Of a DNA stretch of 64,000 nt, positions 1,246 to 49,486 are shown one piece after another. Within the stretch, counting starts at the first letter, position 1. Every line of letters starts with the position of its first letter. A program made the translations under genes and the position numbers. The stretch is from an uncultured Candidatus Saccharibacteria bacterium (GTDB lineage: Bacteria; Patescibacteriota; Doudnabacteria; UBA920), in the NCBI GenBank assembly GCA_964483665.1, contig CAZACP010000005.1, forward strand, positions 1,910-65,909, in the 5' to 3' direction. The notes under the pieces are model-generated. The model saw only the letters and a program-made list of their open reading frames with translations, ran no database searches and had not been told where the DNA came from.

Positions 1246-1509
1246 TTAATTTATTATACCAGATATCTTAGCTTTGTTAAGCAACTCGACTTTTTTGCTT
1301 TTCGGCCATTTTTTGACCTCGATTTCGCGTTTGAGGGCCTTACTTTTATTTCTAAATTTTTCCGAGTAGACAATTTTGCCTCCGCCGCGGCTGCGCACGT
1401 ACTTAGAGCCTTTGCCTTGATTATGCAAAGCTTCGCGCTTCTCTAAATTGTCGGTATAACCGCAGTAAAGGCTTTTGTCTTTGCATTTTAAAATGTAAAA
1501 GTAATGCAT
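1246..1509 (-). CDS. GIY-YIG nuclease family protein (small, URI-domain only)
   Basis: YxYILKC...LYCGYT...L..R...H motif typical of GIY-YIG catalytic domain; 87 aa. Confidence 0.6.
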   Translation of the reverse strand: MHYFYILKCKDKSLYCGYTDNLEKREALHNQGKGSKYVRSRGGGKIVYSEKFRNKSKALKREIEVKKWPKSKKVELLNKAKISGIIN

Positions 1510-2267: not shown

Positions 2268-2342
2268 GGCGCTATCGTCTAATGGTTAGGACAAGTGGTT
2301 TTCATCCACTAAATCGGAGTTCGATTCTCCGTAGCGCTACCA
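2268..2342 (+). tRNA. tRNA-Glu (anticodon UUC)
   Basis: Cloverleaf with acceptor GGCGCTA/TAGCGCT, D-arm TCGTCTAATGG, anticodon loop TTTTCAT, T-loop GGAGTTCGATTCTCC, encoded CCA; similar to bacterial tRNA-Glu. Confidence 0.8.
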
Positions 2343-3835
2343 AAGTTAACTTTCACTCTGTCGGCAATTACACGAAATTCATTTTTCCAAATAACCGCAA
2401 TAGTTTTATCGCTCTCCGAAGATTGCCAAGACAGGTTTTCCACTAAAGAACGAATAAGCAAACGTTTTTTCTCATCAGAAGCCATCCGATAAGCCAGGGA
2501 TGGCTTTTTGAGTAGTTTTCCAATTTTAGCAATGTGGTTCATAGTTTCTGTATCGGCCTTCTCCAAAGACATCCTTCGTTCACATAATTCTTTGTCCTTG
2601 TTAACCAAATTGGAGCTTGCATGTTTATATTCTTCTTCTGGTATGGTTCCGTTTAGACAAAGAGTTAACAATTTATCTTTTTCCAATCTAATTTTGGACA
2701 ATTCTAAGTCAACCGCTTTAATTTGAGTTAAGCGGTTTAAAGATAAGTCTGCCCTAAACTTAGCTACAGCCCTTAAAAATACAGTAGTTTCCTTTTCAGT
2801 AAACTCAATGTCGCATAAGGATTTAAAAAACTGGTCTTCTATAAACTCTTCTTTTATATTGCACTTGCAGCCAAACCTGCAGTTATAGTATTTGTACCTA
2901 TCACGTGCCGATATAGACCTTAGCTTTTTACCACAAAACGGACACGCCATTAAACCACCAAAAATATAAACAAATTTACGCTGGTGCTTGTAGCTTCTGC
3001 CGTCTAATACTTTTTGGACTTGGTCAAATAAGGCTTTGGTTATTATTGGCTGGTGTGAGCCGCGCTTGAGTGCTTTTTTAAATTTAAATACACCATAATA
3101 GAATGGATTGCGTAGTGTTTTGTATAGCGCCTTAGGATTTAGCGGTTTGGCCGGGTTAGTTTTAGTTCCTTTAGTCATTAAACCCATTTTGGTTAACTGT
3201 TTATGTAAGGCATCAATGCTGTAATTGCCAGTTGAGTAAATTTCAAATGCTCGTTTAACAATGCCGCTCATGACAGGATCTGGTTCTTTAACTCCTTTGC
3301 CTTTGTCCAAATAACCAATAGGTGCTCGTGTAGGACATCTACCGTCTTCCACCATGCCGTTTATGCCTTTATGAATTTCGTGCCGTAAGTTGTCTACGTA
3401 AAATTTTGCAAAACCTACCTGAATGGAAAACAACCGCCAATTTTCATTTTTACTGCTAATACCATCTGAAACAAAATGAATTTCAAAACCTTCCTTGGCC
3501 AAGTCTTCCAAAATTATTGCATCTTTAAAATTCCTTGTAGAACGGTCAATTTTGTGAAAGATTAAGCCTTTGCCTTTGTTTTCTCTTAAGTCTTTTACCA
3601 TTTCTTTAAAAATTTTTCTGTCATCACTTTTAGCGCTTTCAGTTTCTCGGTAAAATGGCTCTTTAATTTGTAAATTATTCCGGCGAGCGTAATCTTTTAA
3701 TTGACGCGCTTGTTCGTTAAGGCTTTCGCCTTCCGCCTGTTCCTTACTGGAAACTCTTACGTAGCAGTAGTAAATATTTTGGTTATTTTCTTTTTGCATA
3801 TATTTTTGACTGCTTGGCAAATTCTGTTCTGGCAA
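2309..3835 (-). CDS. large serine recombinase (resolvase/invertase N-terminal catalytic domain + recombinase domain + zinc ribbon + coiled coil)
   Basis: N-terminal YCYVRVSSKEQ catalytic Ser motif, central recombinase domain, CPFCG...CRFGC zinc ribbon, coiled-coil C-terminus; 3' end of gene overlaps 3' end of tRNA-Glu by 34 nt. Confidence 0.8.
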   Translation of the reverse strand: MPEQNLPSSQKYMQKENNQNIYYCYVRVSSKEQAEGESLNEQARQLKDYARRNNLQIKEPFYRETESAKSDDRKIFKEMVKDLRENKGKGLIFHKIDRSTRNFKDAIILEDLAKEGFEIHFVSDGISSKNENWRLFSIQVGFAKFYVDNLRHEIHKGINGMVEDGRCPTRAPIGYLDKGKGVKEPDPVMSGIVKRAFEIYSTGNYSIDALHKQLTKMGLMTKGTKTNPAKPLNPKALYKTLRNPFYYGVFKFKKALKRGSHQPIITKALFDQVQKVLDGRSYKHQRKFVYIFGGLMACPFCGKKLRSISARDRYKYYNCRFGCKCNIKEEFIEDQFFKSLCDIEFTEKETTVFLRAVAKFRADLSLNRLTQIKAVDLELSKIRLEKDKLLTLCLNGTIPEEEYKHASSNLVNKDKELCERRMSLEKADTETMNHIAKIGKLLKKPSLAYRMASDEKKRLLIRSLVENLSWQSSESDKTIAVIWKNEFRVIADRVKVNFGSATENRTPI

Positions 3836-4028
3836 ACTTTATTCCTTTTAGCAAACTATGCGCCTTTTCAAACTCGCCTGACATAATGCAGGTTTTACGC
3901 TCCTGCTCCATTTGTCGAATTTGACCAGCCGCCGCTTTTAACCACTCCATGCGCTCGGCTCTTGAGGCAAACTTCATAAGTACCAAAATTAAAACGCCAG
4001 ACCTGAAACTGCTTTTGTTGCTACACAA
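3783..4028 (-). CDS. small hypothetical protein upstream of and overlapping recombinase gene (possible directionality factor)
   Basis: 81-aa ORF, start codon lies within 15-bp inverted repeat; no family recognised. Confidence 0.25.
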   Translation of the reverse strand: MCSNKSSFRSGVLILVLMKFASRAERMEWLKAAAGQIRQMEQERKTCIMSGEFEKAHSLLKGIKFARTEFAKQSKIYAKRK

Positions 4029-4168
4029 ACACAGTGGTCTGACGTTTAATTTAGAATACTCTAAACTAATGGCCGTTTCAAGCCGTGTTTGTGTAGCAAA
4101 TTAATTATAATATACGGTGCACCGGTGTACATAGCTGAAATTTTGTGTTGGTTTTACTAGTTATAATT

Positions 4169-4195
4169 GTTAACCTCGTTAACCTAGTTAACTTA
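4169..4195. repeat. three tandem 9-bp direct repeats GTTAACCTC/GTTAACCTA/GTTAACTTA (iteron-like)
   Basis: Read directly; third copy overlaps stop codon of P-loop gene. Confidence 0.6.
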
Positions 4196-5647
4196 AGGGA
4201 GTAGCGGTGTTTGGTCTTCCATTTCCTCTTTTTCTGTACCTAACATGGTTTTTGTTATGCCGTAATACTCTGCTAAATCATGAATTCGTTTATACTCTGA
4301 TGCAGGAACGCTGAATCCTGTTGAATCTCTAAACTTCTTTATGCCTAGCTTGGAAATTATCGTGCCAATCCTTTTGGCCGAAACTACGTAATTCTGGCTA
4401 ACAAGCATTTGTCCGGTTTCTTCGCTTTTGTAATGGGAGTCCGGACGGTCGTTATATTCGTTGTAGAATTTACGGCTATACCAATCAGCAACTTCCTTTA
4501 TACGAATTTTTTTGACGTATGCTTGGTTTTTATCTTTAGCTAACATCTCTTGTAGACAAATAAGTACTTCCGTTTCAAAAGAGTTGTGCAACTGAGACTT
4601 CAATTCGTTGTCTGCTTTAATGCCAAATTCCAAAACTTTATTAACCACGTCTTCGCCTATCAATGCCGCTACTGTTAACATTGCGCTAAAGGTTTGTTTC
4701 ACTCTTGGGGTTTTTATTTTGTCTGTGTATTGCTCAGTAATTTCAACCTTGCCATAATTACTAAATCTGAAAGCAAGAAGCATCCTGCGTAGAAATGCAG
4801 CTATGTCCTCGTTGTCCTTAGACATTGTAATTGGGAAGCCATTTGCTTTGCCGTGATACAGCCACTGTGTTATACAACGACTCTCAAGTGCTTGGTCTCC
4901 AAAGCGTTCTCGTGATGCTAAAATTTTCGGACCAAAAACATCAAAGACTACCGTCTTAAAAGTGCCATCTTTTTTAGGCTCCATTCTCAGGACCGGAAAA
5001 TTCTTTATGTGCCCAGCGTTTAGAATTTTTACGATAATTGACCACATATCCGAATTTTTAAAGTCTGTTTCGTCAAAAACCATAGTACCTTTAATTTGGT
5101 TTAAAGTTCGGAATATTGCCGAATTAGAAGCGGGTCCGCCAAAAAACATAGCCTTATAACAAAGACTACCGACTACTTCTAAAAATCTGGTTTTACCGCT
5201 TCCGAAACCTCCTATAACTCGGAGATAAGGCACAACAGGAAACTTGTCATAAACCCAAGTCATCATTATGTATATGGCCGCTATGGTATAAAATTCTTCG
5301 GGTAAAAATATCCACTTTTTTAAGTGCATCTTAATCGCGGCAAATAACCTATGGTTATCTCCGTAACCTTCAATGTCATTTGGCAATTTCAGAAAGCCGG
5401 ATTTTAACATTTGGTCTGTAGGTGGCCAGGGCAAAATTTTATCCTGCTCGGTATTAATAAGTTCTACGAATTTCACTTCCTCTAAATTTGCTGATTGTCC
5501 GTTTGAAACCACAAATCCGGTTGTGTTAGATTCGGGCTTGTAAAACATTTCCACTAACGAACCATCACTTAAGATGTCTGAAATTTTATAGACATCAGGG
5601 ATTGTTTTGTCCATGTTTAATATCTCCTTTCGCAGCAGCCAGCTCAT
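4193..5647 (-). CDS. P-loop NTPase, putative replication/primase-helicase-associated protein of integrated element
   Basis: Walker A GGFGSGKT and Walker B VVFDETD; 484 aa; context next to recombinase; family not resolved. Confidence 0.5.
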   Translation of the reverse strand: MSWLLRKEILNMDKTIPDVYKISDILSDGSLVEMFYKPESNTTGFVVSNGQSANLEEVKFVELINTEQDKILPWPPTDQMLKSGFLKLPNDIEGYGDNHRLFAAIKMHLKKWIFLPEEFYTIAAIYIMMTWVYDKFPVVPYLRVIGGFGSGKTRFLEVVGSLCYKAMFFGGPASNSAIFRTLNQIKGTMVFDETDFKNSDMWSIIVKILNAGHIKNFPVLRMEPKKDGTFKTVVFDVFGPKILASRERFGDQALESRCITQWLYHGKANGFPITMSKDNEDIAAFLRRMLLAFRFSNYGKVEITEQYTDKIKTPRVKQTFSAMLTVAALIGEDVVNKVLEFGIKADNELKSQLHNSFETEVLICLQEMLAKDKNQAYVKKIRIKEVADWYSRKFYNEYNDRPDSHYKSEETGQMLVSQNYVVSAKRIGTIISKLGIKKFRDSTGFSVPASEYKRIHDLAEYYGITKTMLGTEKEEMEDQTPLLP

Positions 5648-5846
5648 CGTAAATTTCCAAAATACTGCGCGTGTATCCTAGAAGAGTTTCCGAAAGTTGG
5701 CTGCTGTCATTAATTATTTCTTCCGCAGAATCTGCAGAATTTTTAAAGTTTTCTTCTCGCATAAGTTGTGGACGCAAAAAAAGACCTAAGAGCTATGCAC
5801 ACCAAAGGTGCATATAACTCTTAGGTCTCTAATACCTACCCGTTAT

Positions 5847-5876
5847 TTGGGATTTACAGCTGACACCTAGTATAAT
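5847..5876 (+). promoter_or_regulatory. sigma70-like promoter (TTGGGA-N18-TATAAT, alternative TTTACA -35)
   Basis: Consensus -10 TATAAT at 5871-5876 with plausible -35; lies in noncoding ori-like region. Confidence 0.35.
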
Positions 5877-5882
5877 TTCTTA

Positions 5883-6017
5883 CCTAGATGTTCGATGCCG
5901 GTTTGCACCGGTAAACAAGCTAACTGCTTGTAAGATGAACGGTGGATTCCCGTTCGCCACTTATGGCTTTTAAAGCCACAAGATTCCAACAACTGTAAAT
6001 TTTCTATTTTTATTATA
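5883..6017 (+). ncRNA. candidate small RNA: four consecutive stem-loops followed by U-rich tract
   Basis: Hairpins CCGGTttgcACCGG, ACAAGCtaactGCTTGT, GAACGGtggattcCCGTTC, TGGCTTTTAAAGCCA then TTTTCTATTTTTATT; downstream of promoter. Confidence 0.25.
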
Positions 6018-6451
6018 CTCCATCGGTTTAGAGTGTCAAGTTTTTTTGCAAATTTATAAAAATTTTATTAACTTGGTGAACATTGTTAACTTCTAAACAC
6101 TTATAGCAGCCACCATAGGTAGAAATCCTAACGCTTAATATAAATCTATACTGTGCTAAATAAAAATGTACCGAGACTGTCCTGGTGCTTCCGGCAATGC
6201 CGTAAACTGTAAGCCGGTGGTGAATATTTACAAAATGGCCTATTTTTAATACAATATAGCTACAACAAAGCCTAAACCAACAGCTAAAAACTGATGGCAT
6301 GGCGCAATAAAGGTTAATCACCGTGAAGCACAATGACAGCCATCTGTCTTGCCTTTACGCTTCACGGTGTAGCCAGGGAAACCTGGTTTGGCAAGCGGGT
6401 GGCCCTTTTTGTTAGCCACTAGCTTGCAGCATTACAATTAACAATAATAAA

Positions 6452-6775
6452 ATGCTCACAAGCTTTTTGTTAATAGCAACAGCTATTATATTAGTTTCCG
6501 CAAAACTAATTAAAAATGTGGTTATAAAATATAAATTAAAAAATTCTAAACTTGTGCAAAATAAAGAAAACCTGCAGTGCCAGGCATGCGGTTTAGAATT
6601 TCATAAAGATAAATTTTTAGCTCACGTGTTAGATACTGCGACTTTTGATGAAATGGAAATAAAAGAATCTCCGCTTATAAATTTACTTTCTCTAAATAAA
6701 CATAAATATTATATTGGTAAAGCGATTGCTGAAACACAAAAAGCTGGTGGCAACTTGCAGGCTATTAGCGATTAG
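6452..6775 (+). CDS. hypothetical small protein with CxxC
   Basis: 107-aa ORF, N-terminal TM; no family. Confidence 0.3.
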   Translation: MLTSFLLIATAIILVSAKLIKNVVIKYKLKNSKLVQNKENLQCQACGLEFHKDKFLAHVLDTATFDEMEIKESPLINLLSLNKHKYYIGKAIAETQKAGGNLQAISD

Positions 6776-7091
6776 TTGCCTGACTGTTTCTGGCTTTGAT
6801 ATTATTGATAATTTCTTTAAGTTGCGAACTCTGCTCCTGCAGTTTTTGTCGTTCCTGCTGATCGCTAATTTCCAAAAAAGCATTCGCCTTGCCAAATATC
6901 CTGTCCAGCAGTTCCTTTACGGCCGGAATATTGCCTTCGGATGCCTGTTTAATTAAAGCGGCCACTATTGGCCCTTTATTTTTTATAGTTTCTTCAATTA
7001 TATGTTGCCTCAGCGCTTCAGCCTCCAAAGTGTGAGCCGCTTTGCTTCCTTGTGGCCTGCCTGCACCGGTGCGCTTTCCGCCATGTGCCAT
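6765..7091 (-). CDS. phage-associated small protein with N-terminal GGKRxGAGRPxG motif
   Basis: MAHGGKRTGAGRPQGSK N-terminus typical of small phage/mobile-element proteins; divergent from XRE gene. Confidence 0.4.
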   Translation of the reverse strand: MAHGGKRTGAGRPQGSKAAHTLEAEALRQHIIEETIKNKGPIVAALIKQASEGNIPAVKELLDRIFGKANAFLEISDQQERQKLQEQSSQLKEIINNIKARNSQATNR

Positions 7092-7268
7092 AAACTTGAG
7101 TAAAGAATCAAATAATCAAGTTTATCCTATTATTAAGGTTAAAAATTGTACAATTTATAGCTTTTGCACCTGTGGATATTTAAGTGTAAGCTTTTAAATA
7201 TCCTTGATTTTATTGGAAAAAATAAATTATTTGACATAAAATATTCCTTCAGGCATACTAATATTGCT

Positions 7269-7604
7269 ATGAGAAACATAAGCGACCTAGTAAAAAATCA
7301 ACGCACCAAGTTAGGCTTAACAATGGAAGAGGTAGGGGAAAAAGCGAAGCTATCACAAGGATTTGTGTCTAAATTAGAAAAAGGAGACTATAGCGCGGAA
7401 AGTTTGTCCTTGGACACAATAATTCGCCTTGCCGATGCTCTTAAATTAAAGGTTAAAGATTTTCTTGATGACCTTAAAGTTATCGAGTCCGACCAAGCCC
7501 CCTCATTAAATGTATATTTACGACAAAAGTACGACATCCAAAATACGAAAGATGTCCAAATGATTGAAGATATAATTAATAGGTTTATTAATAATAAGCA
7601 ATGA
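7269..7604 (+). CDS. XRE-family helix-turn-helix transcriptional regulator (Cro/CI-type)
   Basis: LVKNQRTKLGLTMEEVGEKAKLSQGFVSKLEKG HTH_3 motif; ORF track start is upstream, first plausible Met at 7269. Confidence 0.7.
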   Translation: MRNISDLVKNQRTKLGLTMEEVGEKAKLSQGFVSKLEKGDYSAESLSLDTIIRLADALKLKVKDFLDDLKVIESDQAPSLNVYLRQKYDIQNTKDVQMIEDIINRFINNKQ

Positions 7605-8113
7605 AGTTTTCGCAGGTCAACCAAAAAGCGGAGCAAACCGCCGCATCAATAATATCAGCCATTGGCAAAGACGAACCGTCCTTGGCTGATTTAATTGCTT
7701 GGTTAACTGAAAATTTTGGAATAAAATTTGAAATTTCTAAAATGGATTTATCCAACCACCCTGTATGCGGTTTGGTATTTCAAAATCCGGCCACGCGAGC
7801 TCATAAAGTAGTTGTTGACCGAAACGATTCAGCAGAAAGGCAGAGGTTTAGCGTATGTCACGAACTCGCTCATATACTGCGGGAAAAGGAATTAGTTTTT
7901 GGTTTTTTTAATGGGGATTTACAAAATCAAGACTATGAAGAACGATTTTGCAACCGCTTTGCCGCGGCTTACCTGATGCCTGAAAAATCTTTTCGGGCAA
8001 AATGGGCATCAACTTCAGAAAACTTTTTAATCAAACGCTACGCAATAGCAGAGTATTTTGGTGTATCAAAAGAAACAGTAATGTACCGAGCATTAGAACT
8101 TGGGCTCCAATAA
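7601..8113 (+). CDS. ImmA/IrrE family metallopeptidase
   Basis: HELAH zinc-binding HExxH motif in conserved context, translationally coupled (ATGA overlap) to XRE gene; classic ImmR/ImmA arrangement. Confidence 0.65.
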   Translation: MKFSQVNQKAEQTAASIISAIGKDEPSLADLIAWLTENFGIKFEISKMDLSNHPVCGLVFQNPATRAHKVVVDRNDSAERQRFSVCHELAHILREKELVFGFFNGDLQNQDYEERFCNRFAAAYLMPEKSFRAKWASTSENFLIKRYAIAEYFGVSKETVMYRALELGLQ

Positions 8114-8204
8114 AACTTCTATGAATAAAACTAACATAAATAATACACTTTTAATTATCTGTTTGAACGGTAAAGCCGATGTTTTTACCAATATTTTAAA
8201 AGTC

Positions 8205-8237
8205 AAAAAAAGCCGCTAAAATTTAGCGGATTTTTTG
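8205..8237 (+). terminator. rho-independent terminator
   Basis: GCCGCTAAA/TTTAGCGG stem followed by TTTTTT. Confidence 0.5.
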
Positions 8238-8387
8238 GGCGTTTAAATCGGAGAAGGGGCTATCCTTCCCGAAAAACCCTGATCGATTTCTTCGAAAAGC
8301 TAGCTATGCAAGAGAAAGCTGTGATATGTTTTACTCTATCATATCTGACGCCTTTAAGCAACTAATTCCTACAGGACCAACTCTTAT

Positions 8388-8528
8388 ATGAGCGAATCCA
8401 AAACCAGCCTTCGTGGCCGGGACGCAAAGACGGGAGAATTCACTACTGTGGAGGAAGCACGCCGCTACCCCACTACTCACGTCGTTGAGCGCGTTCCCAA
8501 GCCCGGTTATGGCGACACAAAAGATTAA
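8388..8528 (+). CDS. candidate 46-aa ORF in GC-rich patch (MSESKTSLRGRDAKTGEFTTVEEARRYPTTHVVERVPKPGYGDTKD)
   Basis: Below ORF-track size cutoff; non-random charged composition, followed by hairpin GCCGCCTT/AAGGCGGC. Confidence 0.3.
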   Translation: MSESKTSLRGRDAKTGEFTTVEEARRYPTTHVVERVPKPGYGDTKD

Positions 8529-8552
8529 TCTGGTATAGCTATTAGTACCAAG

Positions 8553-8580
8553 GCCGCCTTTGGGAAGGAAGGCGGCTTTA
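8553..8580 (+). terminator. stem-loop, weak terminator
   Basis: GCCGCCTT tgggaagg AAGGCGGC then TTTA. Confidence 0.35.
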
Positions 8581-8599
8581 AAAACGGTATTTAGATTAT

Positions 8600-8791
8600 A
8601 TGAATAGCATTTCTTCACCACACAAATTAATAGGGAGCTTAACCCATTGGACTTTCCGACTCCTAATTATTTTAGTTTGCAAACTTTTTGGTATTGAAAT
8701 GTCGCAATGGTTGGAAAGAAAGCTGGCCTATGCCTTAACAGGAATATTTTTGGTTTCCATTGGTGCATGGTCGTATATTAAGTGGTTATAA
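8600..8791 (+). CDS. small two-TM membrane protein
   Basis: 63-aa ORF with two hydrophobic segments. Confidence 0.3.
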   Translation: MNSISSPHKLIGSLTHWTFRLLIILVCKLFGIEMSQWLERKLAYALTGIFLVSIGAWSYIKWL

Positions 8792-8797
8792 CAGATA

Positions 8798-9271
8798 ATG
8801 ACTAAAGACGAACTAATCAAAAAAATAGAAGACAATCCTGAATTTACAGAAGAACAATGGGAGTCTGAAATGCAATCACCTGGAATACAAGTAGAACTTA
8901 CCAGCGGTCCTTTTTCATTTGGCAAGTCACTACCTTGTCCGGTTTGCGAAGTGGTAGGATTCTATGGGCCACGAGTAGCCGGTCAGAGGAAATATAGGGC
9001 TTGTAAGTTCTGCGGTTTTTGGCAGGAAGTACCTAAAGAGCCGCTAACGATTTGGGGTAATAAAGGATATCGCTGTACCCATATTTATTGCCCAAACGGA
9101 CATGAATATGATTGGGTACATCCAAATATAAATGAGTTCAGAAATTGCAAGACATGCAACGCTAAATTGGAAAAAACGGACTGGGCTTCGGATAATCCAA
9201 ATCATCCTTTCCAAAATATAAAGTTAGTAATTACCAATTTTTTAAAAACCCAAACAGCAGCTAATGAATAG
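8798..9271 (+). CDS. Cys-rich zinc-ribbon protein (four CxxC-like pairs)
   Basis: CPVC, CKFC, CTHIYC, CKTC motifs; 157 aa; 8-nt overlap with next gene. Confidence 0.45.
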   Translation: MTKDELIKKIEDNPEFTEEQWESEMQSPGIQVELTSGPFSFGKSLPCPVCEVVGFYGPRVAGQRKYRACKFCGFWQEVPKEPLTIWGNKGYRCTHIYCPNGHEYDWVHPNINEFRNCKTCNAKLEKTDWASDNPNHPFQNIKLVITNFLKTQTAANE

Positions 9272-10082
9272 AAGTGAGTATTTAAAAAATTTTGGCACAT
9301 TAGAAAAGAAAGATAAACGTTATTATCTTTTTAGAGCATTTTTGTTATGCCTAAACGTACAAGAAACTCGTGACCTCATCCAAATAGATTTTTCGCAAGA
9401 TATTCTGACCCGTTTTTTAATAACTAAAAAAATCATAGACGATTTAAAGGTCGGACAAAATAAAAACTTAACAAAATTAGTTGAAGAGATTTTGGAAAGA
9501 ATAGCAACACTTACTTCCTATCATAAAAAACAAGCAGCCTCCAAATTTTTAACTGAAATTTTTGATTTTTTGGAGCCTGAATACCAGGATACGGTAATGG
9601 CCTACTTATTTAATTCACCATATATTAATGACCGAAAGAGGTCTTACGGTCTATTAATGAAAAAGTTTGACGAAAGTTATACTGAAAAATTATTAGAACA
9701 TTTAAATCAATACGATGGTGATTATCCATTAGCCGTAATAGTTAGCTGTTGCCAGCCTAAGGTCTTAAATGAAAATTTTGATTTGATAAATAAATATTTT
9801 GAAGACGACTTAATACAGTACGATTGGCAACTTTTAAAAATCCGTACCAAATTTTATGCTAGGTTGTTAAATTTAAGACCTAAATTTATTAATCAACTAA
9901 AACAGAAAGACCCCATTTCTTACATGTATGTCATGAAAGAGACTGGTAAAAAAATAGATTCGGACATGGCGTGGAAAGCTTTTATGGCAAATCCGAACCG
10001 TAGTAGCTTATTTAGGTTATTTAGTGATTTAAAGCTTTGGGATGTTCTTATAAAAATTGACAGATATCAAAAATCGCATTAA
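9264..10082 (+). CDS. hypothetical all-alpha protein, operonic with Zn-ribbon protein
   Basis: 272-aa ORF, no family recognised. Confidence 0.45.
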   Translation: MNRSEYLKNFGTLEKKDKRYYLFRAFLLCLNVQETRDLIQIDFSQDILTRFLITKKIIDDLKVGQNKNLTKLVEEILERIATLTSYHKKQAASKFLTEIFDFLEPEYQDTVMAYLFNSPYINDRKRSYGLLMKKFDESYTEKLLEHLNQYDGDYPLAVIVSCCQPKVLNENFDLINKYFEDDLIQYDWQLLKIRTKFYARLLNLRPKFINQLKQKDPISYMYVMKETGKKIDSDMAWKAFMANPNRSSLFRLFSDLKLWDVLIKIDRYQKSH

Positions 10083-10312
10083 TAAAAGAGTTTTCCAAAA
10101 GCCCATTGCTCACCCAACAGCACCTCGGCGAACACCCAAAGGCGAATTTGGAAAACTAATTCGGCAGTAATAAAAGAGTTTTCCAAAAGCCTCTTGCTCA
10201 TCCAACAACACCTCGGCGAACACCCAAAGGAGAATTTGGAAAACTAATCTGGCTTAAATTTAAAGGTTTTCCAAATGCACCTTGCTCAAGCAAGTGAACC
10301 TGGAAAACTTTT
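10080..10312. repeat. tandem 88-bp direct repeats (2 full + 1 divergent copy), each an internal inverted repeat AGTTTTCCAAA...TTTGGAAAACT
   Basis: Read directly: copies start 10080 and 10168, third copy 10256-10312 ends in T-tract. Confidence 0.7.
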
Positions 10313-10394
10313 TTGTTTTAAACATAAACAAAATCAGCTATAATATAATAAAGATCGTTATTTTTTAGCTTTTTATAAAGATCAAAGCCATATT

Positions 10395-12767
10395 ATGAGA
10401 GAAAGAAGCATACCCGAATCCCATTTTGAAACCAAGTCTGTCCATAAAAAAAAGACTGAACTCCAACAAGAGCGAGGTGATTTAATGACAGCCAAACAAG
10501 AGCAGCTGGATTATGTTAAGGATGCCTGTATGGAAATTTTTGGAAGCGAACGCCTGCCTAAAGAGATGGTTCAGGAGTTGGTAGACATACGCAAACAAAT
10601 TGCGTCAAAGGTAGAAGAATCGGAATATCTTGAAGAAGTAGAAGTTTTTACTCAGCAACAAATTGCCCAACTTGCAGTAAAAATTGCAAATTATAAAAAT
10701 GCGCGGGGTGTTGAACGTGCGGCGATTGATAATAAAGGGCAAATTTCAGTAGTAACTGCGGATAGCCGCTTACGACCATTGTCTGAAAATGAGGAAGTCT
10801 TAGTCAATTCCTTGGAACTTTACTTTGATACTTACCGGATGGCTCAAAATTCTTTTAGATTTGCAAAAAATGTTAAAGCAGCTGAGGGAGAAATTATACA
10901 TGAAAATGCTAATCGCAAATTAAATTTTTATGCAGAAGGTGATAAAAGAAAAGCTGTAGTCGAGCGTATCCAAGAAAAATATTTAAGTGCAGGATTTACC
11001 AATGGTGAATTAACGGAACTTGTTGAAACTTGTAGCTTGCCCGATTTGGACAAACTCACTATTCACGACCTTAAGGTACTTGTAAAAATTAGAGAGATAT
11101 TTCAAAAATTCATGGGAGGTGACAAAACTAAGTATGTTGCCTTATCAGCCGGGTTACTAGTCCCTGCATTTATAAACGGCTATGCTCCTATGGTGCTTGC
11201 CGATGCCTTTAAAGGTGGTAACATTGATGTAACACAGGTAGGGCTTTATGCATTGCTTTCTTCGGCTTCTGCTGGCAGCTCCATGATTGTTGAAAAACAA
11301 TTCATGAATTTTCTTAATAAGAATTTTAGTAAGGAAAAAGGTATTGGGCAGAGCATTGCAACAAATGTCGCAGAACTACCAGCGGATCAAATTGCCAGCT
11401 TTGGTGTTGATGATATTAAGGTTAATATTTCCGAGGCTAAAGATAGTTATGAAGATATATACAGATTAATCAGCTTTGATATTTTACCCGCTGTTGTTAC
11501 TTTGACTACCAGCGCAGCCATGCTGTATGAAAAAAGCCCCGTGTTAGCTGGTGCTACAGCAATTGGTACAGGGGTGATGATGGCTTTAGATAAATACCTG
11601 GAGAAAGCTACAGCATGGCACAGTAAGAGGAGAGCGGCAAAACAACAGGCTCAGGATGTTTCAAGCCAAATGACTGAGCAATTAAATGCTCATTTAGAGA
11701 TAATTCTTTCTGGAATGAAAGACGAGTTGGCTACAAGAATGGAAGCTTTGCTCACTAAAGAAAGACTGGCTAATTCTGATAAAAAATTCTCGGATACTCT
11801 TAGAGATAATGTTAGAGAATTTTCTGGCTCATTAAATTTAATTATTGCTGGAATTGTAAGTTATCTCACTGGGGCAACTACAGACAAATTTTTTGCTACG
11901 CTGATTTATTCTGGCAACTTTCAAGGAGCAGTATCTAAAATGCTTCACTCAAAAAGTCAGCTACTCGGAGCATTTCGAGAGATTCAAGAGATGGATTTAA
12001 TGTTTAATGGCTATGCGGCCGAAGAGGCAGAAAAGGAAAAAACTCGTGTTGGTGTTGATACAGTACAGAACAGCGATATTGATTTAAAAAATGTTGAAGT
12101 CGCATTTGAGGGTAAAAAAATCATAGAAATTCCTGAACTTCATATCCCTCAAGGTTCAATGGCAAATCTAAGCGGAGCAAGTGGAGCGGGTAAAACCACG
12201 TTAATGAAAGTTATTTCTGGTTATTACCGCCCAACCTCTGGCACAGTTGAGTTCGGCCATGTTGATATGGATCAAATTAAAAAAAGCGGTCCAGACTCAA
12301 TTTATGCGAGGATTAGCTACCTACCTCAATTTCCTTATATACTTGAAGACACAGTCAGAAAAAATATAATTTTTGGTCTTAAAGAAGAAGTGGGTGATGA
12401 CAAAATTTCAGATGTTTTGAAAGAGGTTGGCCTTGCTGAAAGATTCAAAAATTTGAATGAGCCGTTAAAAGGTGGTAGAGGTGATATGGGCACAGCCTCT
12501 GGAGGAGAGGCTTCCAGAATTGGCTTGGCTCGTATACTGCTTAAAATACGTAATGCCAATTCTAGATTAGTATTTTTAGATGAGCCAACGGCCTCGGTAG
12601 ATGAAAAGACAAAAAATGAAATTGCAAACATTATTAATGCTGAAAAAGCAGCAAGACCTCAGGTAACTTTTGTAGTTATTAGCCACGACAAGGACTTTGT
12701 AAGCAAATTGAACTGTGACGTCGAAGTAAGGATGGAAAAGGGCAAGGTCGTAAACGAGAATTCTTAA
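10395..12767 (+). CDS. ABC transporter, fused permease/ATP-binding protein (exporter type) with extra ~230-aa N-terminal domain
   Basis: C-terminal Walker A GASGAGKTT, signature SGGEASRIGLAR, Walker B LVFLDEPT, H-loop ISHD; ~6 TM segments in middle; N-terminal 230 aa soluble, unassigned. Confidence 0.7.
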   Translation: MRERSIPESHFETKSVHKKKTELQQERGDLMTAKQEQLDYVKDACMEIFGSERLPKEMVQELVDIRKQIASKVEESEYLEEVEVFTQQQIAQLAVKIANYKNARGVERAAIDNKGQISVVTADSRLRPLSENEEVLVNSLELYFDTYRMAQNSFRFAKNVKAAEGEIIHENANRKLNFYAEGDKRKAVVERIQEKYLSAGFTNGELTELVETCSLPDLDKLTIHDLKVLVKIREIFQKFMGGDKTKYVALSAGLLVPAFINGYAPMVLADAFKGGNIDVTQVGLYALLSSASAGSSMIVEKQFMNFLNKNFSKEKGIGQSIATNVAELPADQIASFGVDDIKVNISEAKDSYEDIYRLISFDILPAVVTLTTSAAMLYEKSPVLAGATAIGTGVMMALDKYLEKATAWHSKRRAAKQQAQDVSSQMTEQLNAHLEIILSGMKDELATRMEALLTKERLANSDKKFSDTLRDNVREFSGSLNLIIAGIVSYLTGATTDKFFATLIYSGNFQGAVSKMLHSKSQLLGAFREIQEMDLMFNGYAAEEAEKEKTRVGVDTVQNSDIDLKNVEVAFEGKKIIEIPELHIPQGSMANLSGASGAGKTTLMKVISGYYRPTSGTVEFGHVDMDQIKKSGPDSIYARISYLPQFPYILEDTVRKNIIFGLKEEVGDDKISDVLKEVGLAERFKNLNEPLKGGRGDMGTASGGEASRIGLARILLKIRNANSRLVFLDEPTASVDEKTKNEIANIINAEKAARPQVTFVVISHDKDFVSKLNCDVEVRMEKGKVVNENS

Positions 12768-12852
12768 CTTACGTTGTCCAAAACCGGAAGCCGGGTTAAG
12801 TTGAGGTAAATCTCTCTCACCAAAGCCAGAAAAGTTTTCCACCTGTCTCGAC

Positions 12853-12951
12853 TTGGTCTACCACGGCACCATTCGGTGCGTGGCTTGACGCCGTTTTTGG
12901 ATCAAGCCATCACTGAATAAAATAAATTATAGACACGGAATGGTGCCGTGG
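12853..12951. repeat. 14-bp perfect inverted repeat CCACGGCACCATTC / GAATGGTGCCGTGG separated by 71 nt
   Basis: Read directly; lies just upstream of GIY-YIG gene. Confidence 0.6.
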
Positions 12952-12991
12952 TAATCCCGTACCGTATGGTACTGGGATACCAAAATCTTAT

Positions 12992-13243
12992 ATGTATTAT
13001 GTATATATCCTAAGGAACCAAGATGGCCGTTTGTACATAGGTTACACCGAAGATTTACGAAGAAGATTTGAAGAACATAATGATGGATTATCCACCGCAA
13101 CAAAACCATACCGTCCTTGGTTGTTAATTTTTTACGAAGCATATGTTTCAAAAAGAGATGCAAAGCGACGCGAAATGTACTTAAAAACTTCTAAAGGTAG
13201 AACAACAATTAAAACTATGCTTTCAGATACCTTAAATTCATAA
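12992..13243 (+). CDS. GIY-YIG nuclease family protein (second copy in window)
   Basis: YVYILRN..GRLYIGYT..L..R..EH motif; 83 aa. Confidence 0.6.
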   Translation: MYYVYILRNQDGRLYIGYTEDLRRRFEEHNDGLSTATKPYRPWLLIFYEAYVSKRDAKRREMYLKTSKGRTTIKTMLSDTLNS

Positions 13244-13250
13244 TAGCACC

Positions 13251-13280
13251 CGAAAGGGTGTTTTTGATTTGGTTTTATTG
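13251..13280. repeat. 30-bp segment CGAAAGGGTGTTTTTGATTTGGTTTTATTG (copy 1; with CACCC 5' arm forms terminator hairpin)
   Basis: Exact second copy at 13860-13889. Confidence 0.7.
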
Positions 13281-13368
13281 ATGAAGGAATGGTTTTCCAA
13301 AATTTTGGTGTGTAGAAACTTTTTACAAATAAGCGTATAATTAAGACAAATTAGTTTTCAACCATTAG

Positions 13369-13710
13369 TTGGTGCCGAATAAAGAAAATATGAATAATAA
13401 AGAAAGCATTGAATCACAGGACAGCGAGTTTAAGAGTAAGATGGGTGTATCAAAGAAAGTTCATCTTATAAGTCTTTTTGGAACAATAATATCCATAGTT
13501 ATTTTTTTTATTGCATTAGAAAATAAAGATCATATTCAAGGTTGGGCGATATTAACTTATCCCGTGATACTTTTTGCTGCCTCATTCTTTGTCGGTTACT
13601 GGTATACGGGAAAAGCTAGAGATGGCTTTTATTCGATGTTAAAATTTCTTTATTTTTTAATAGCAGCAGTAGTATTAGGACTCTTGGTCAGATTTTTTAA
13701 ACTACATTAA
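13369..13710 (+). CDS. hypothetical membrane protein
   Basis: 113-aa ORF with 3 hydrophobic segments. Confidence 0.4.
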   Translation: MVPNKENMNNKESIESQDSEFKSKMGVSKKVHLISLFGTIISIVIFFIALENKDHIQGWAILTYPVILFAASFFVGYWYTGKARDGFYSMLKFLYFLIAAVVLGLLVRFFKLH

Positions 13711-13859
13711 TAATTTCTGCTTTACAAAGGTACTGATAAACTTCCCTTACCAAAGCCAAATAAGTTTTCCAGCCGTACAGAGCGGGTCTACCAAAGAAAA
13801 ATACCGAAATAAGTTTTCGGTATTTTTCTTTGCCCTGAGCGAAGTCGAAGGGTTAATAA

Positions 13860-13889
13860 CGAAAGGGTGTTTTTGATTTGGTTTTATTG
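13860..13889. repeat. 30-bp segment, exact copy 2 of 13251-13280
   Basis: Exact match; preceded by 18-bp perfect hairpin CAAAGAAAAATACCGAAA/TTTCGGTATTTTTCTTTG at 13790-13832. Confidence 0.7.
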
Positions 13890-13969
13890 TCCAAAGAAAA
13901 ATTTTACAATATAGGGCATTTTAAGTATAAAATATGGTAAACTAAAGAATAATAATAATTTCATAAAAT

Positions 13970-17238: not shown

Positions 17239-18183
17239 ATGACAAATCAAGAAATACACAATGTAATTATAATCGGTTCAGGACCTGCCGGCCTTACCGC
17301 AGCCTTATATACCGCCAGAGCGGAATTAAAGCCTTTGGTTATTGCGGGTTTAAATCCGGGTGGCCAGCTTATGCAGACAACCGAGGTGGAGAATTTCCCG
17401 GGCTTTGTAAACGGCATAATGGGTCCTGAGTTAATGGATAATATGATGAAGCAGGTAGAAAGGTTTGGCACGGTTATAAAGCAGGAAAATGTAACCGGAG
17501 TGGATTTTAGCAAAAAGCCTTTTGTTGTTAGAACCGAACAGAATGAATATTTGGCCAAAAGCATAATAATCGCAACCGGAGCAGATGCTAACTGGCTTAA
17601 TTTACCAAACGAGCAAAGGCTTAGGGGTAAAGGCGTTTCGGCGTGCGCGACTTGCGACGGTTTTTTCTTTAAAGGCAAGGACTTGGTTGTAGCCGGCGGC
17701 GGAGACAGCGCCATGGAAGAAGCTAGCTTTTTAACCCGCTTTGCGACAAAAGTGACTTTAATCCATCGTCGGCCGGAGTTTAAAGCTTCTAAAATTATGC
17801 TTAATCGGGTAAAAGAAAACCCAAAAATTAAAATTATTGCGGATGCGATTATTACAGATATTTTAGGCCAGGACAAAGTTGAGGGGGTTAAAATTAAACA
17901 CAACCAAACCGGGCAGGAAGAGGTAATCCAGGCCGGCGGGTTTTTTGTGGCTATTGGCCATACGCCAAACGGGAAAATTTTTGCAGAGGCAGGCGTAGAA
18001 GTTGACCAAAAGGGTTATATAAATGTTTCGCACAATACCCATACTAATATAGAGGGAGTCTTTGTAGCCGGCGATGTGAATGATCCGCGTTATAGGCAGG
18101 CCATAACCGCAGCCGGAATGGGCTGTATGGCGGCACTCGACGTAGAGAAATATTTGGCAGAACATGAGGAAAGTAGTAAGTAG
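17239..18183 (+). CDS. trxB: thioredoxin-disulfide reductase
   Basis: GSGPAG FAD motif, CATC redox-active disulfide, GGGDSA NADPH motif; 314 aa. Confidence 0.85.
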   Translation: MTNQEIHNVIIIGSGPAGLTAALYTARAELKPLVIAGLNPGGQLMQTTEVENFPGFVNGIMGPELMDNMMKQVERFGTVIKQENVTGVDFSKKPFVVRTEQNEYLAKSIIIATGADANWLNLPNEQRLRGKGVSACATCDGFFFKGKDLVVAGGGDSAMEEASFLTRFATKVTLIHRRPEFKASKIMLNRVKENPKIKIIADAIITDILGQDKVEGVKIKHNQTGQEEVIQAGGFFVAIGHTPNGKIFAEAGVEVDQKGYINVSHNTHTNIEGVFVAGDVNDPRYRQAITAAGMGCMAALDVEKYLAEHEESSK

Positions 18184-18207
18184 TATGTAGTATGTAGCAA
18201 AATCCTA

Positions 18208-18636
18208 ATGAACAAGATCTACCAACTACCAACTACCAACTACCAACTAACCGGCAAAGTTATTCGTGGTGACGGTTATGGCAGGAAGCTAGGTTTTCCC
18301 ACGGCCAATATAGACCGCAGGCAGTATGTAAAAGATAAATTGAAGGTCAAATTGGGAATTTGGGCAGGAGCTGTGAGTTATCAGTCATCAATTAACAATT
18401 ATCAATCACGTCCCGCAGCTATAGTAATCGGTCCTGTTGATCGTCGTGGTTTACCTAAGCTCGAAGCGCACTTAATAGGCTTTAAAGGCAATTTATATGG
18501 AAAAAAATTAAGTATATACCTGGGTATATACTTAAGGCCGTTTAAAAAGTTTAAAAGTGAATTGGAATTAATAGAGCAAATACATAGGGATATAAAAAAC
18601 ATTTTAAATTTAAAGAAAAAAATATGGCAGAGTTAG
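18208..18636 (+). CDS. riboflavin kinase (monofunctional, RibF C-terminal-domain-like)
   Basis: GxVxxGxGxGRKLGFPTANI motif; first 15 codons encoded by CTACCAA heptad repeat. Confidence 0.6.
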   Translation: MNKIYQLPTTNYQLTGKVIRGDGYGRKLGFPTANIDRRQYVKDKLKVKLGIWAGAVSYQSSINNYQSRPAAIVIGPVDRRGLPKLEAHLIGFKGNLYGKKLSIYLGIYLRPFKKFKSELELIEQIHRDIKNILNLKKKIWQS

Positions 18637-48781: not shown

Positions 48782-48855
48782 TGGTGGACCTTGGGAGAAT
48801 CGAACTCCCGCATGCCGGATGCAAACCGGCCGCACTACCACTATGCTAAAGGCCC
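48782..48855 (-). tRNA. tRNA-Ala (anticodon UGC)
   Basis: GGGCCTTTAGCATAGTGGTAG...TTTGCAT...GGGAGTTCGATTCTCCCAAGGTCCACCA; G3:U70 pair present. Confidence 0.8.
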
Positions 48856-49411: not shown

Positions 49412-49486
49412 TGGTGGGTGCGGGAAGGATCGAACTTCCGACCCCGTCATTATCAGTGACGTGCTCTACCACTGAGCTACGCACCC
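49412..49486 (-). tRNA. tRNA-Ile (anticodon GAU)
   Basis: GGGTGCGTAGCTCAGTGGTAGAGCACGTCACTGATAATGACGGGGTCGGAAGTTCGATCCTTCCCGCACCCACCA. Confidence 0.8.

Follow-up and report, generated by a model that had tools for sequence, protein, structure and literature searches.

The two 88-bp repeats and the shorter third unit at 10076-10320 of the window (the whole 64,000-nucleotide stretch of DNA that was analysed) probably form a variable-number tandem array, which derives from the terminator stem-loop of a gene encoding a 272-aa protein and lies in an integrated island of ~10.5 kb. The array adds one more case to two known kinds, the terminator hairpin and the VNTR, here in a mobile island, and is fairly ordinary. 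Its identification mainly clears a false lead, in that the repeat appears to represent neither a new mobile-element family nor a new small-RNA family. As a VNTR, it has modest worth for marking strains within an uncultivated population of Patescibacteria, and it illustrates how hairpins in these small genomes are hotspots of duplication and loop insertion. The by-products of the analysis may matter more. These are an island-enriched 8-mer, a GIY-YIG cassette that is tRNA-linked and has a conserved structure in its 5' region, and a structured tRNA leader of Saccharibacteria.

Structure and folding of the tandem array

TRF placed the array at 10076-10288, with a period of 88, 2.4 copies and 86% matches, and a repeat search of the window returned two 88-nt copies, 10076-10163 and 10164-10251, which were 91% identical. 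The tandem 88-bp repeat of the original prediction is real, and since the phase of the repeat is arbitrary, the starts given there (10080 and 10168) are equivalent to 10076 and 10164. Unit 1 (10076-10163, plus strand) carries inverted arms at 10089-10099 and 10147-10157, and unit 2 (10164-10251, plus strand) carries them at 10177-10187 and 10235-10245. These arms, AGTTTTCCAAA and TTTGGAAAACT, are 11 nt each with 47 nt between them, in agreement with the hairpin-forming arms that had been predicted. Unit 3 (10252-10320, plus strand) corresponds to the degenerate third copy ending in a T-tract that had also been noticed. It is shorter, has the 5' part (GTTTTCCAAA.GC.CCTTGCTCA) and the 3' arm in common with the long units, and contains a compact hairpin at 10262-10312, followed by TTTTTTGTTTT at 10309-10319 (U6GU4). 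In units 1 and 2 the top of the hairpin is swapped for an insert of ~35 nt, and a U-tract was found in unit 3 alone. The array is not a CRISPR, as had been recognised, because the units abut and are repeated over their full 88 bp. The possibility that the repeats ahead of the ABC gene encode an array of peptide or RiPP precursors was considered and rejected, since 88 is not divisible by 3 and the short ORFs were spurious only.

The array as a whole folded better than shuffled sequences on both strands (z -3.8 on the plus strand and -4.1 on the minus strand), and the hairpin of unit 3 had a folding energy of -19.4 kcal/mol (z -3.4). The plus-strand RNAs of units 1 and 2 folded at -18 and -15 kcal/mol, and the corresponding minus-strand RNAs at -32 and -26 kcal/mol. 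The far more stable minus-strand folds, which are owing to G-U pairs, and the U-rich stretch after each hairpin on that strand would fit a reading of each 88-bp unit as a minus-strand small RNA, made up of a hairpin and then CUCUUUUAUUA. We regard this as improbable, because a consensus scan detected no minus-strand promoter-like site in or near the array, no Rfam family matched, the relatives lack the long units, and the differences between the units include changes that break pairs. At the gathering threshold, the only Rfam matches in the window were 4 tRNAs; the best match within 9900-10500 had an E-value of about 1, and a search at relaxed E-values returned nothing relevant at the array or at the second repeat region. 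The suggestion that the repeats belong to a family of small structured RNAs was thus borne out neither by Rfam nor by any promoter-like site for independent transcripts.

A predicted terminator behind the 272-aa gene

The 272-aa gene, whose function is unknown, occupies 9264-10082 on the plus strand of the ORF list, and its 3' end and stop codon form the start of unit 1. The surroundings of the stop codon recur in unit 2 (GCATTAATAAAAG and GCAGTAATAAAAG). What is repeated is therefore a block of gene end, hairpin and spacer, which indicates tandem duplication and not separate insertions.

Orthologs of the 272-aa protein, at 62% amino acid identity, were found in L072/L073 and L074, which come from other metagenomes. 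A single hairpin, the arms of which are GTTTTCCA/TGGAAAAC, starts 3-8 nt past the stop codon of each ortholog. The L073 hairpin, TAAATAGTTTTCCAAACACATGTTGGTTGACCAATGCGACCTGGAAAACCATTTTGTGTTATTT, folded at -17.1 kcal/mol and has the U-rich tail ATTTTGTGTTATTT; the L074 hairpin is decayed and no longer folds, with its 3' arm kept. A stable hairpin with a U-rich tail was thus present in two of the three lineages, which suggests that the hairpin is an intrinsic terminator. When unit 3 was compared with L073, the inner stems differed in their letters (CTTGCT/AGCAAG versus TTGG/CCAA), and the architecture was unchanged. Unit 3, a stable stem-loop just 3' of the coding region, appears to be the original feature, that is, the ancestral predicted intrinsic terminator of the 272-aa gene. 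The long units are confined to one strain cluster and have no counterpart in the relatives, and at the closest ABC ortholog locus (89% amino acid identity, L006-L008) the upstream DNA was unrelated and held no such unit. Units 1 and 2 arose by strain-specific duplication, head to tail, of the block of stop codon, hairpin and spacer.

Like known intrinsic terminators, unit 3 combines a stable stem-loop with a U-tract 3' of a gene, at a position that is conserved in orthologous loci, and the array resembles tandem terminators in having several hairpins in series between two genes. Unlike intrinsic terminators, units 1 and 2 have a 47-nt insert at the apex and no U-tract. The basal stem of the array is rich in A and U, an unusual composition for a terminator, and this counts against the terminator reading. 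Conservation also extends to the sequence and is not limited to pairing. The hairpin arms are identical among the orthologs despite ~68% identity of the coding DNA, and this invariance, together with the 3' arm kept in L074, suggests a sequence-specific constraint beyond pairing. The conserved arm letters and the better minus-strand folds of units 1 and 2 both speak against a purely structural role. Unit 3 was not listed by a simple terminator scan, the loop and stem rules of which exclude long hairpins.

Variation in copy number

A locus from sample ERZ27282891 (L092) has flanks identical to those of the window and an intergenic gap that is 88 bp longer. TRF counted 3.4 copies there versus 2.4 in the window, and the full units numbered three and two, respectively. 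The number of units therefore changes between co-existing strains. In register, the head of L092 unit a and the tail of unit b together make up unit 1 of the window, and the two alleles are thus one unequal crossover or slippage event apart. The contigs of five other samples were identical across the array. In two of them the assembly breaks within unit 1, as expected of a repeat-induced assembly break.

With head-to-tail units that vary in number between strains and flanks that are identical, the array matches bacterial VNTRs or minisatellites, in which units of tens of bp change in number by unequal crossover or slippage. It differs from them in that each unit is itself a long, terminator-derived hairpin.

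Transcription from the 272-aa gene would pass the first two units, where a U-tract is missing, and would end at unit 3. The 3' end of the mRNA would then consist of three or four stem-loops, which could slow 3' exonucleases. The array may also insulate the downstream ABC gene, whose putative -35/-10-like site (TTTAAA-16-TATAAT at 10317-10344 on the plus strand, 10/12 matches in a consensus scan) sits just past the U-tract. It is equally possible that the additional units are near-neutral by-products of hairpin-prone DNA.

Search for other copies of the unit

The original prediction had likened the unit to MITE/REP elements, that is, to a mobile hairpin that was inserted here and spread in tandem. 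The unit is small and its 11-nt arms are terminal inverted repeats, and these traits, with hairpin-forming transcripts, are shared with MITEs such as Correia, RUP and ERIC. Related loci also repeat the duplication of hairpins and the insertion into loops, as in an array of four 54-nt units in L086 and in loop insertions in L078. Dispersed copies were looked for by several approaches. BLAST of the 88-bp unit and its interior against the 64-kb window and 0.49 Mb of related loci returned self-matches and chance 10-12-mers only. A search of 185,579 GTDB species genomes with the arm pattern and a variable gap produced 24 loci, 16 of which were unrelated palindromes and 8 of which form a Saccharibacteria family. 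The source genome is absent from the species representatives searched, and its coverage for 88-bp copies is that of the 64-kb window. In JGI metagenomes, the arm pattern with a 35-60-nt gap matched 35 loci, none of which resembled the 88-bp unit, and no copy was found in IMG/VR, phages or plasmids by core-pattern search and BLAST. Outside the locus itself, the count of the unit was therefore zero in the window and in all of these collections.

Target-site duplications, which had been proposed as a check, were likewise missing at the array, where the flanks read ...TAATAAAAG before it and AATTCGGCAG after it. The boundaries take in the stop codon and the 3' end of the flanking gene, as in a tandem duplication and unlike in MITEs, which also differ from the array in having target-site duplications and multiple dispersed copies. 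A tblastn search with a Y1_Tnp protein from L084 identified no RAYT or Y1 transposase in the window. These results largely refute the MITE/REP reading, which we now consider very improbable. The prediction had named as its own counter-evidence a repeat that has no copies elsewhere and can be accounted for as a terminator array, and this is largely the outcome that was obtained.

Some likeness to enterobacterial REP/BIME sequences nevertheless exists. The array is a cluster of imperfect palindromes in a 3' untranslated region, where it could stabilise the upstream mRNA, and its copy number differs among strains. Unlike the array, for which one locus was found and no RAYT gene in the window, REPs are present as hundreds of dispersed copies together with a RAYT; and whereas the orientation of BIMEs alternates, the array units are direct repeats.

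Scattered sites and the GIY-YIG cassette

Fragments of the same motif had been reported further downstream. The sites exist, with the 9-mer AGTTTTCCA at 12833 and 13763 and GTTTTCCA at 13292, but they are not pieces of the 88-bp unit. In a 64-kb search, alignment of the unit to these sites was limited to ~19 nt at 89% identity, in inverted orientation and with an E-value of about 1-3. The sites belong instead to two other duplicated boxes, designated D3 and D4. The D3 copies (12807-12863 and 13737-13793) are 75% identical, and the D4 copies (13251-13303 and 13860-13912) are 83% identical, with 30 nt exact that include the terminator CACCCGAAAGGGTGTTTTT. The AGTTTTCCA sites at 12.8-13.8 kb lie in a separate repeat pair at the borders of the GIY-YIG cassette, and are not copies of the 88-bp unit.

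The first D3 copy (plus strand), which contains AAGTTTTCCACCTGTCTCGA, forms the right end of the putative island, with CTACCA as its last letters. The GIY-YIG cassette (12855-13368, plus strand) shows 76-80% nucleotide identity to L078/L082, and this homology begins exactly at 12855. Folding predicted a long, conserved 5' hairpin at 12859-12953 (plus strand), the base of which takes in the tRNA 3' ACCA, and then a second hairpin. The ORF of 83 aa at 12992-13243 (plus strand) matched Pfam GIY-YIG, and scans of the plus strand placed a terminator at 13245-13268, the first D4 copy overlapping it, and a GTTTTCCA box at 13292-13299. A consensus scan detected a promoter-like TATAAT at 13336-13341 (plus strand), followed by AGTTTTCA. 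A predicted membrane-protein gene of 113 aa (13369-13710 on the plus strand of the ORF list), for which no Pfam family was found, lies between the two D3/D4 pairs. The second pair belongs to an ORF-less partial duplicate of the cassette borders (13737-13912, plus strand). Between its D3 and D4 copies there is only a perfect 18-bp hairpin at 13792-13832, whereas the 83-aa GIY-YIG gene sits between those of the first pair.

Homologs of the GIY-YIG gene lie directly after tRNA genes, namely Glu-UUC in L078-L083 (90% amino acid identity), Glu-CUC in L084/L085 (79%) and Gln-CUG in L086/L087 (69%). At the tRNA/cassette junction of the relatives, ...GGGGCTACCA is joined to CGGCACCATTCGGTGCGTGGC, and the window has GGTCTACCA joined to CGGCACCATTCGGTG at 12855-12877. 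D3-like boxes were also found upstream of a distant GIY-YIG gene (37% amino acid identity) in L073, which has the 272-aa gene as well, and after the ABC ortholog in L006. D3 and D4 are not general flanks of GIY-YIG genes, as the second such gene of the window (1246-1509, minus strand) lacks them. Nor is D3 a decayed tRNA-Glu. Its alignment to three tRNA-Glu genes was no better than that of shuffles (p 0.08-1.0), no tRNA model matched it even at E-values up to 10, and CTACCA alone is shared.

The putative integrated island

A tRNA-Glu(UUC) gene at 2268-2342 (plus strand), identified by ARAGORN and Rfam, marks the left attachment side of the island. It is overlapped by the 3' end of a gene for a large serine recombinase, or integrase (2309-3835, minus strand), which matched Pfam Resolvase, Recombinase and Zn_ribbon_recom and the integrase family phrog_95 (E 2e-76). 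In the relatives L078-L083 the 3' end of tRNA-Glu is joined directly to the GIY-YIG cassette, which represents the uninterrupted state, and in the window homology to this junction resumes at 12855. From the integrase beside a tRNA gene and the uninterrupted site in relatives, we infer that 2343-12854 is an integrated island of ~10.5 kb that splits tRNA-Glu from the GIY-YIG cassette. It contains the integrase, a pair consisting of an Xre-HTH protein (7164-7604) and an ImmA/IrrE-type protease, the 157-aa and 272-aa genes, the array, the ABC gene and the first D3 copy. The ABC gene, a cargo gene for a 790-aa ABC-type ATPase/permease-like protein (10395-12767, plus strand), matched Pfam ABC_tran and the ABC transporter family phrog_2392, and the neighbourhoods of its orthologs were unrelated.

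In its integrase abutting tRNA-Glu, its mosaic cargo and the uninterrupted tRNA-Glu/GIY-YIG junction of relatives, this region resembles tRNA-adjacent serine-recombinase islands. Unlike in such islands, the two junctions have only CTACCA (6 nt) in common, and the att sites are putative. On visual inspection, the presumed attP arms showed no clear inverted symmetry. The earlier view of this stretch as recombinationally active holds, given that copy number varies between samples, that the relatives' neighbourhoods are mosaic, and that the putative integrated island contains or adjoins the stretch. Orthologs of the ABC and GIY-YIG genes are annotated as Candidatus Pacebacteria, Paceibacterota, Doudnabacteria and other Patescibacteria, and the host genome is Paceibacteria-like, within the Patescibacteria.

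Enrichment of an 8-mer in the island

The 8-mer GTTTTCCA occurs 14 times in the window versus 4.6 expected, and none of 100 shuffles reached 14. Twelve of the 14 copies fall within 2343-13912, the 11.6 kb of island and cassette that make up 18% of the window, and the excess holds after duplicated copies are collapsed. The 8-mer is also conserved in orthologous hairpin arms, in D3 boxes and in the 3' flank of the relatives' cassettes. A protein-binding site is the obvious candidate cause of this enrichment, and it gives rise to the main rival of the terminator-derived array. The array would then be a cluster of binding sites at the DNA level, in which three inverted pairs provide six sites ahead of the ABC promoter, and GTTTTCCA would be recognised by an island or host protein such as the serine recombinase or the Xre-type repressor. 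The concentration of copies in the island and cassette favours such a role, as do the arms that are invariant in orthologous hairpins, the 3' arm that the decayed L074 hairpin keeps, and the conserved copies in D3 boxes and cassette flanks. Still, we consider it rather unlikely. The candidate binding protein is only putative, the spacing between paired GTTTTCCA sites (23 or 47 bp) is unlike that of usual operators, several sites are duplicates of each other, and the hairpin potential with compensatory changes in the inner stem fits an RNA or terminator role.

A broader proposal, which we put forward as a speculation with little chance of being correct, is that the GUUUUCCA...UGGAAAAC stem is a sequence-specific RNA or DNA recognition element for a putative protein conserved across candidate-phyla-radiation bacteria. 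If so, the same stem would be used in the island's terminator hairpin, at the island end, at the borders of the GIY-YIG cassette and in the basal helix of the Saccharibacteria tRNA leader, and the tandem array would be an amplified cluster of that site.

A structured element upstream of Saccharibacteria tRNA genes

The 8 Saccharibacteria loci recovered with the arm pattern raised the possibility that the hairpin of the window is a diverged member of the same-armed structured-RNA family, which is located directly 5' of tRNA genes. The 11+11-nt arms were identical in the 8 loci, and the family has covariation support, with compensatory changes in 16 of 40 predicted pairs among 8 sequences. The identity of the arms was, however, imposed by the search pattern itself. 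When the covariance model of the family was applied to the units of the window, the score was 12 bits (E about 0.7), which is non-significant, and the arms alone were aligned. The element is also missing at the tRNAs of the window. Membership of the units in the tRNA-leader family was rejected on these grounds, and we hold it to be extremely improbable.

A literature search found no relevant paper on structured RNAs of Saccharibacteria or on GIY-YIG genes and tRNAs in Patescibacteria. The Saccharibacteria element itself is an uncatalogued structured leader of ~125 nt, located directly 5' of tRNA-Val, Met, Arg, Asp and Lys genes. In the leader model (R1), it is composed of hairpin 1, a GGAAGAAGCGAC box, hairpin 2 and a CUGACGC tail.

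An apparent island separating tRNA-Glu from the GIY-YIG cassette

The segment between tRNA-Glu and the GIY-YIG cassette (window 2343-12854) appears to be an integrated island. It encodes a large serine recombinase, the 3' end of whose gene overlaps the tRNA, together with a 484-aa unknown protein, a DUF5681 protein, an Xre-HTH protein with an ImmA/IrrE protease, unknown proteins of 157 aa and 272 aa, and an ABC ATPase/permease-like protein. The neighbourhoods of the 272-aa and ABC genes were mosaic in relatives. The 8-mer GTTTTCCA was strongly concentrated in the island and cassette, which contained 12 of its 14 window copies (4.6 expected over the whole window). Copies were located at window 2435, 2515, 3424 (-), 10090-10308, 12834, 13292 and 13764, and three of the island/cassette copies lay within the recombinase gene.

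GIY-YIG genes and their 5' hairpins

In this Patescibacteria family, GIY-YIG genes were found directly after tRNA-Glu or tRNA-Gln. A long, highly conserved hairpin (CCACGGCACCAUUCGGUG...CACGGAAUGGUGCCGUGG), the base of which takes in the 3' ACCA of the tRNA, lay 5' of these genes, and after it came a second hairpin, whose loop is GUAU/GAAU. This hairpin region, located at window 12855-12991 and, in two of the loci retrieved for comparison, at L078:1041-1206 and L084:1836-2003, may represent an uncatalogued structured RNA or the end of a homing cassette. In L084, from a MAG labelled Doudnabacteria, an IS200/RAYT-like Y1 transposase gene (L084:2465-3142, -) lay directly downstream of the cassette; no counterpart of this gene was found in the window. 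A second small GIY-YIG gene (window 1246-1509, -), encoding 87 aa and 38% identical to the first, was flanked by a Peptidase_M23 gene on one side and a 203-aa gene on the other, and flanks of the D3/D4 type, the repeat pair bordering the cassette, were absent around it.

Duplications and loop insertions were also observed at hairpins in related loci. Between tRNA-Gln and the GIY-YIG gene of L086 (1769-2000; also in L087), we found about four tandem copies of a 54-nt unit (TCAGTCACCATTCGGTGCGTGGCTAGGCACGAACCGTATGGTTCTGTGCCAGCC), and the 3' end of the tRNA was copied in every unit. This array is a second case of tandem amplification of a gene end plus hairpin. Comparison of L078 with the window revealed GC-rich loop insertions of ~30 nt in two hairpins, the terminator (L078:1453-1500; CACCC[GAATCTCTCGACTTCGCTCGAGACATGCCGA]GGGTG) and the second 5' hairpin (L078:1150-1180), the latter insertion being a partial duplication. 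The 12-mer GAGCGAAGTCGA also occurred in the window (~13842-13853). Hairpin loop insertion seems to be recurrent in this lineage.

A structured element 5' of Saccharibacteria tRNA genes

The arm-pattern search with the arms of the 88-bp unit, which imposes arm identity, also retrieved a conserved structured element of ~125 nt directly 5' of tRNA-Val/Met/Arg/Asp/Lys genes in Saccharibacteria MAGs (L013:4823-4955, -; L014:7343-7469, +; L015:1731-1863, -; L016:4628-4760, -; L025:6455-6600, +; L026:3064-3196, +; L028:51-181, -; L035:4869-5004, -). It consists of hairpin 1 (arms AGUUUUCCAAAC/GUUUGGAAAACU), a GAGAGGAAGAAGCGACUAGAGG box, hairpin 2 and GACCGUCGGUUCUGACGC, directly after which comes tRNA position +1. 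Compensatory changes were detected in 16 of the 40 predicted pairs, and G-U pairs favoured the tRNA-sense strand. The element had no Rfam match, and a literature search found no paper on it.

Other features of the window

Genes for tRNA-Ala(UGC) and tRNA-Ile(GAU), a pair typical of rRNA operon spacers, were located at window 48782-48855 and 49412-49486 (-), ~560 nt apart, and no rRNA was detected in the whole 64-kb window. Two heptanucleotide repeats were present at one gene junction: AAGTAGT (3.9 copies; window 18171-18197) at the 3' end of a thioredoxin-reductase-like gene and CTACCAA (4.4 perfect copies; window 18219-18249) at the 5' end of a flavokinase-like gene. At a 7-nt period within coding sequence, slippage could cause a frameshift.
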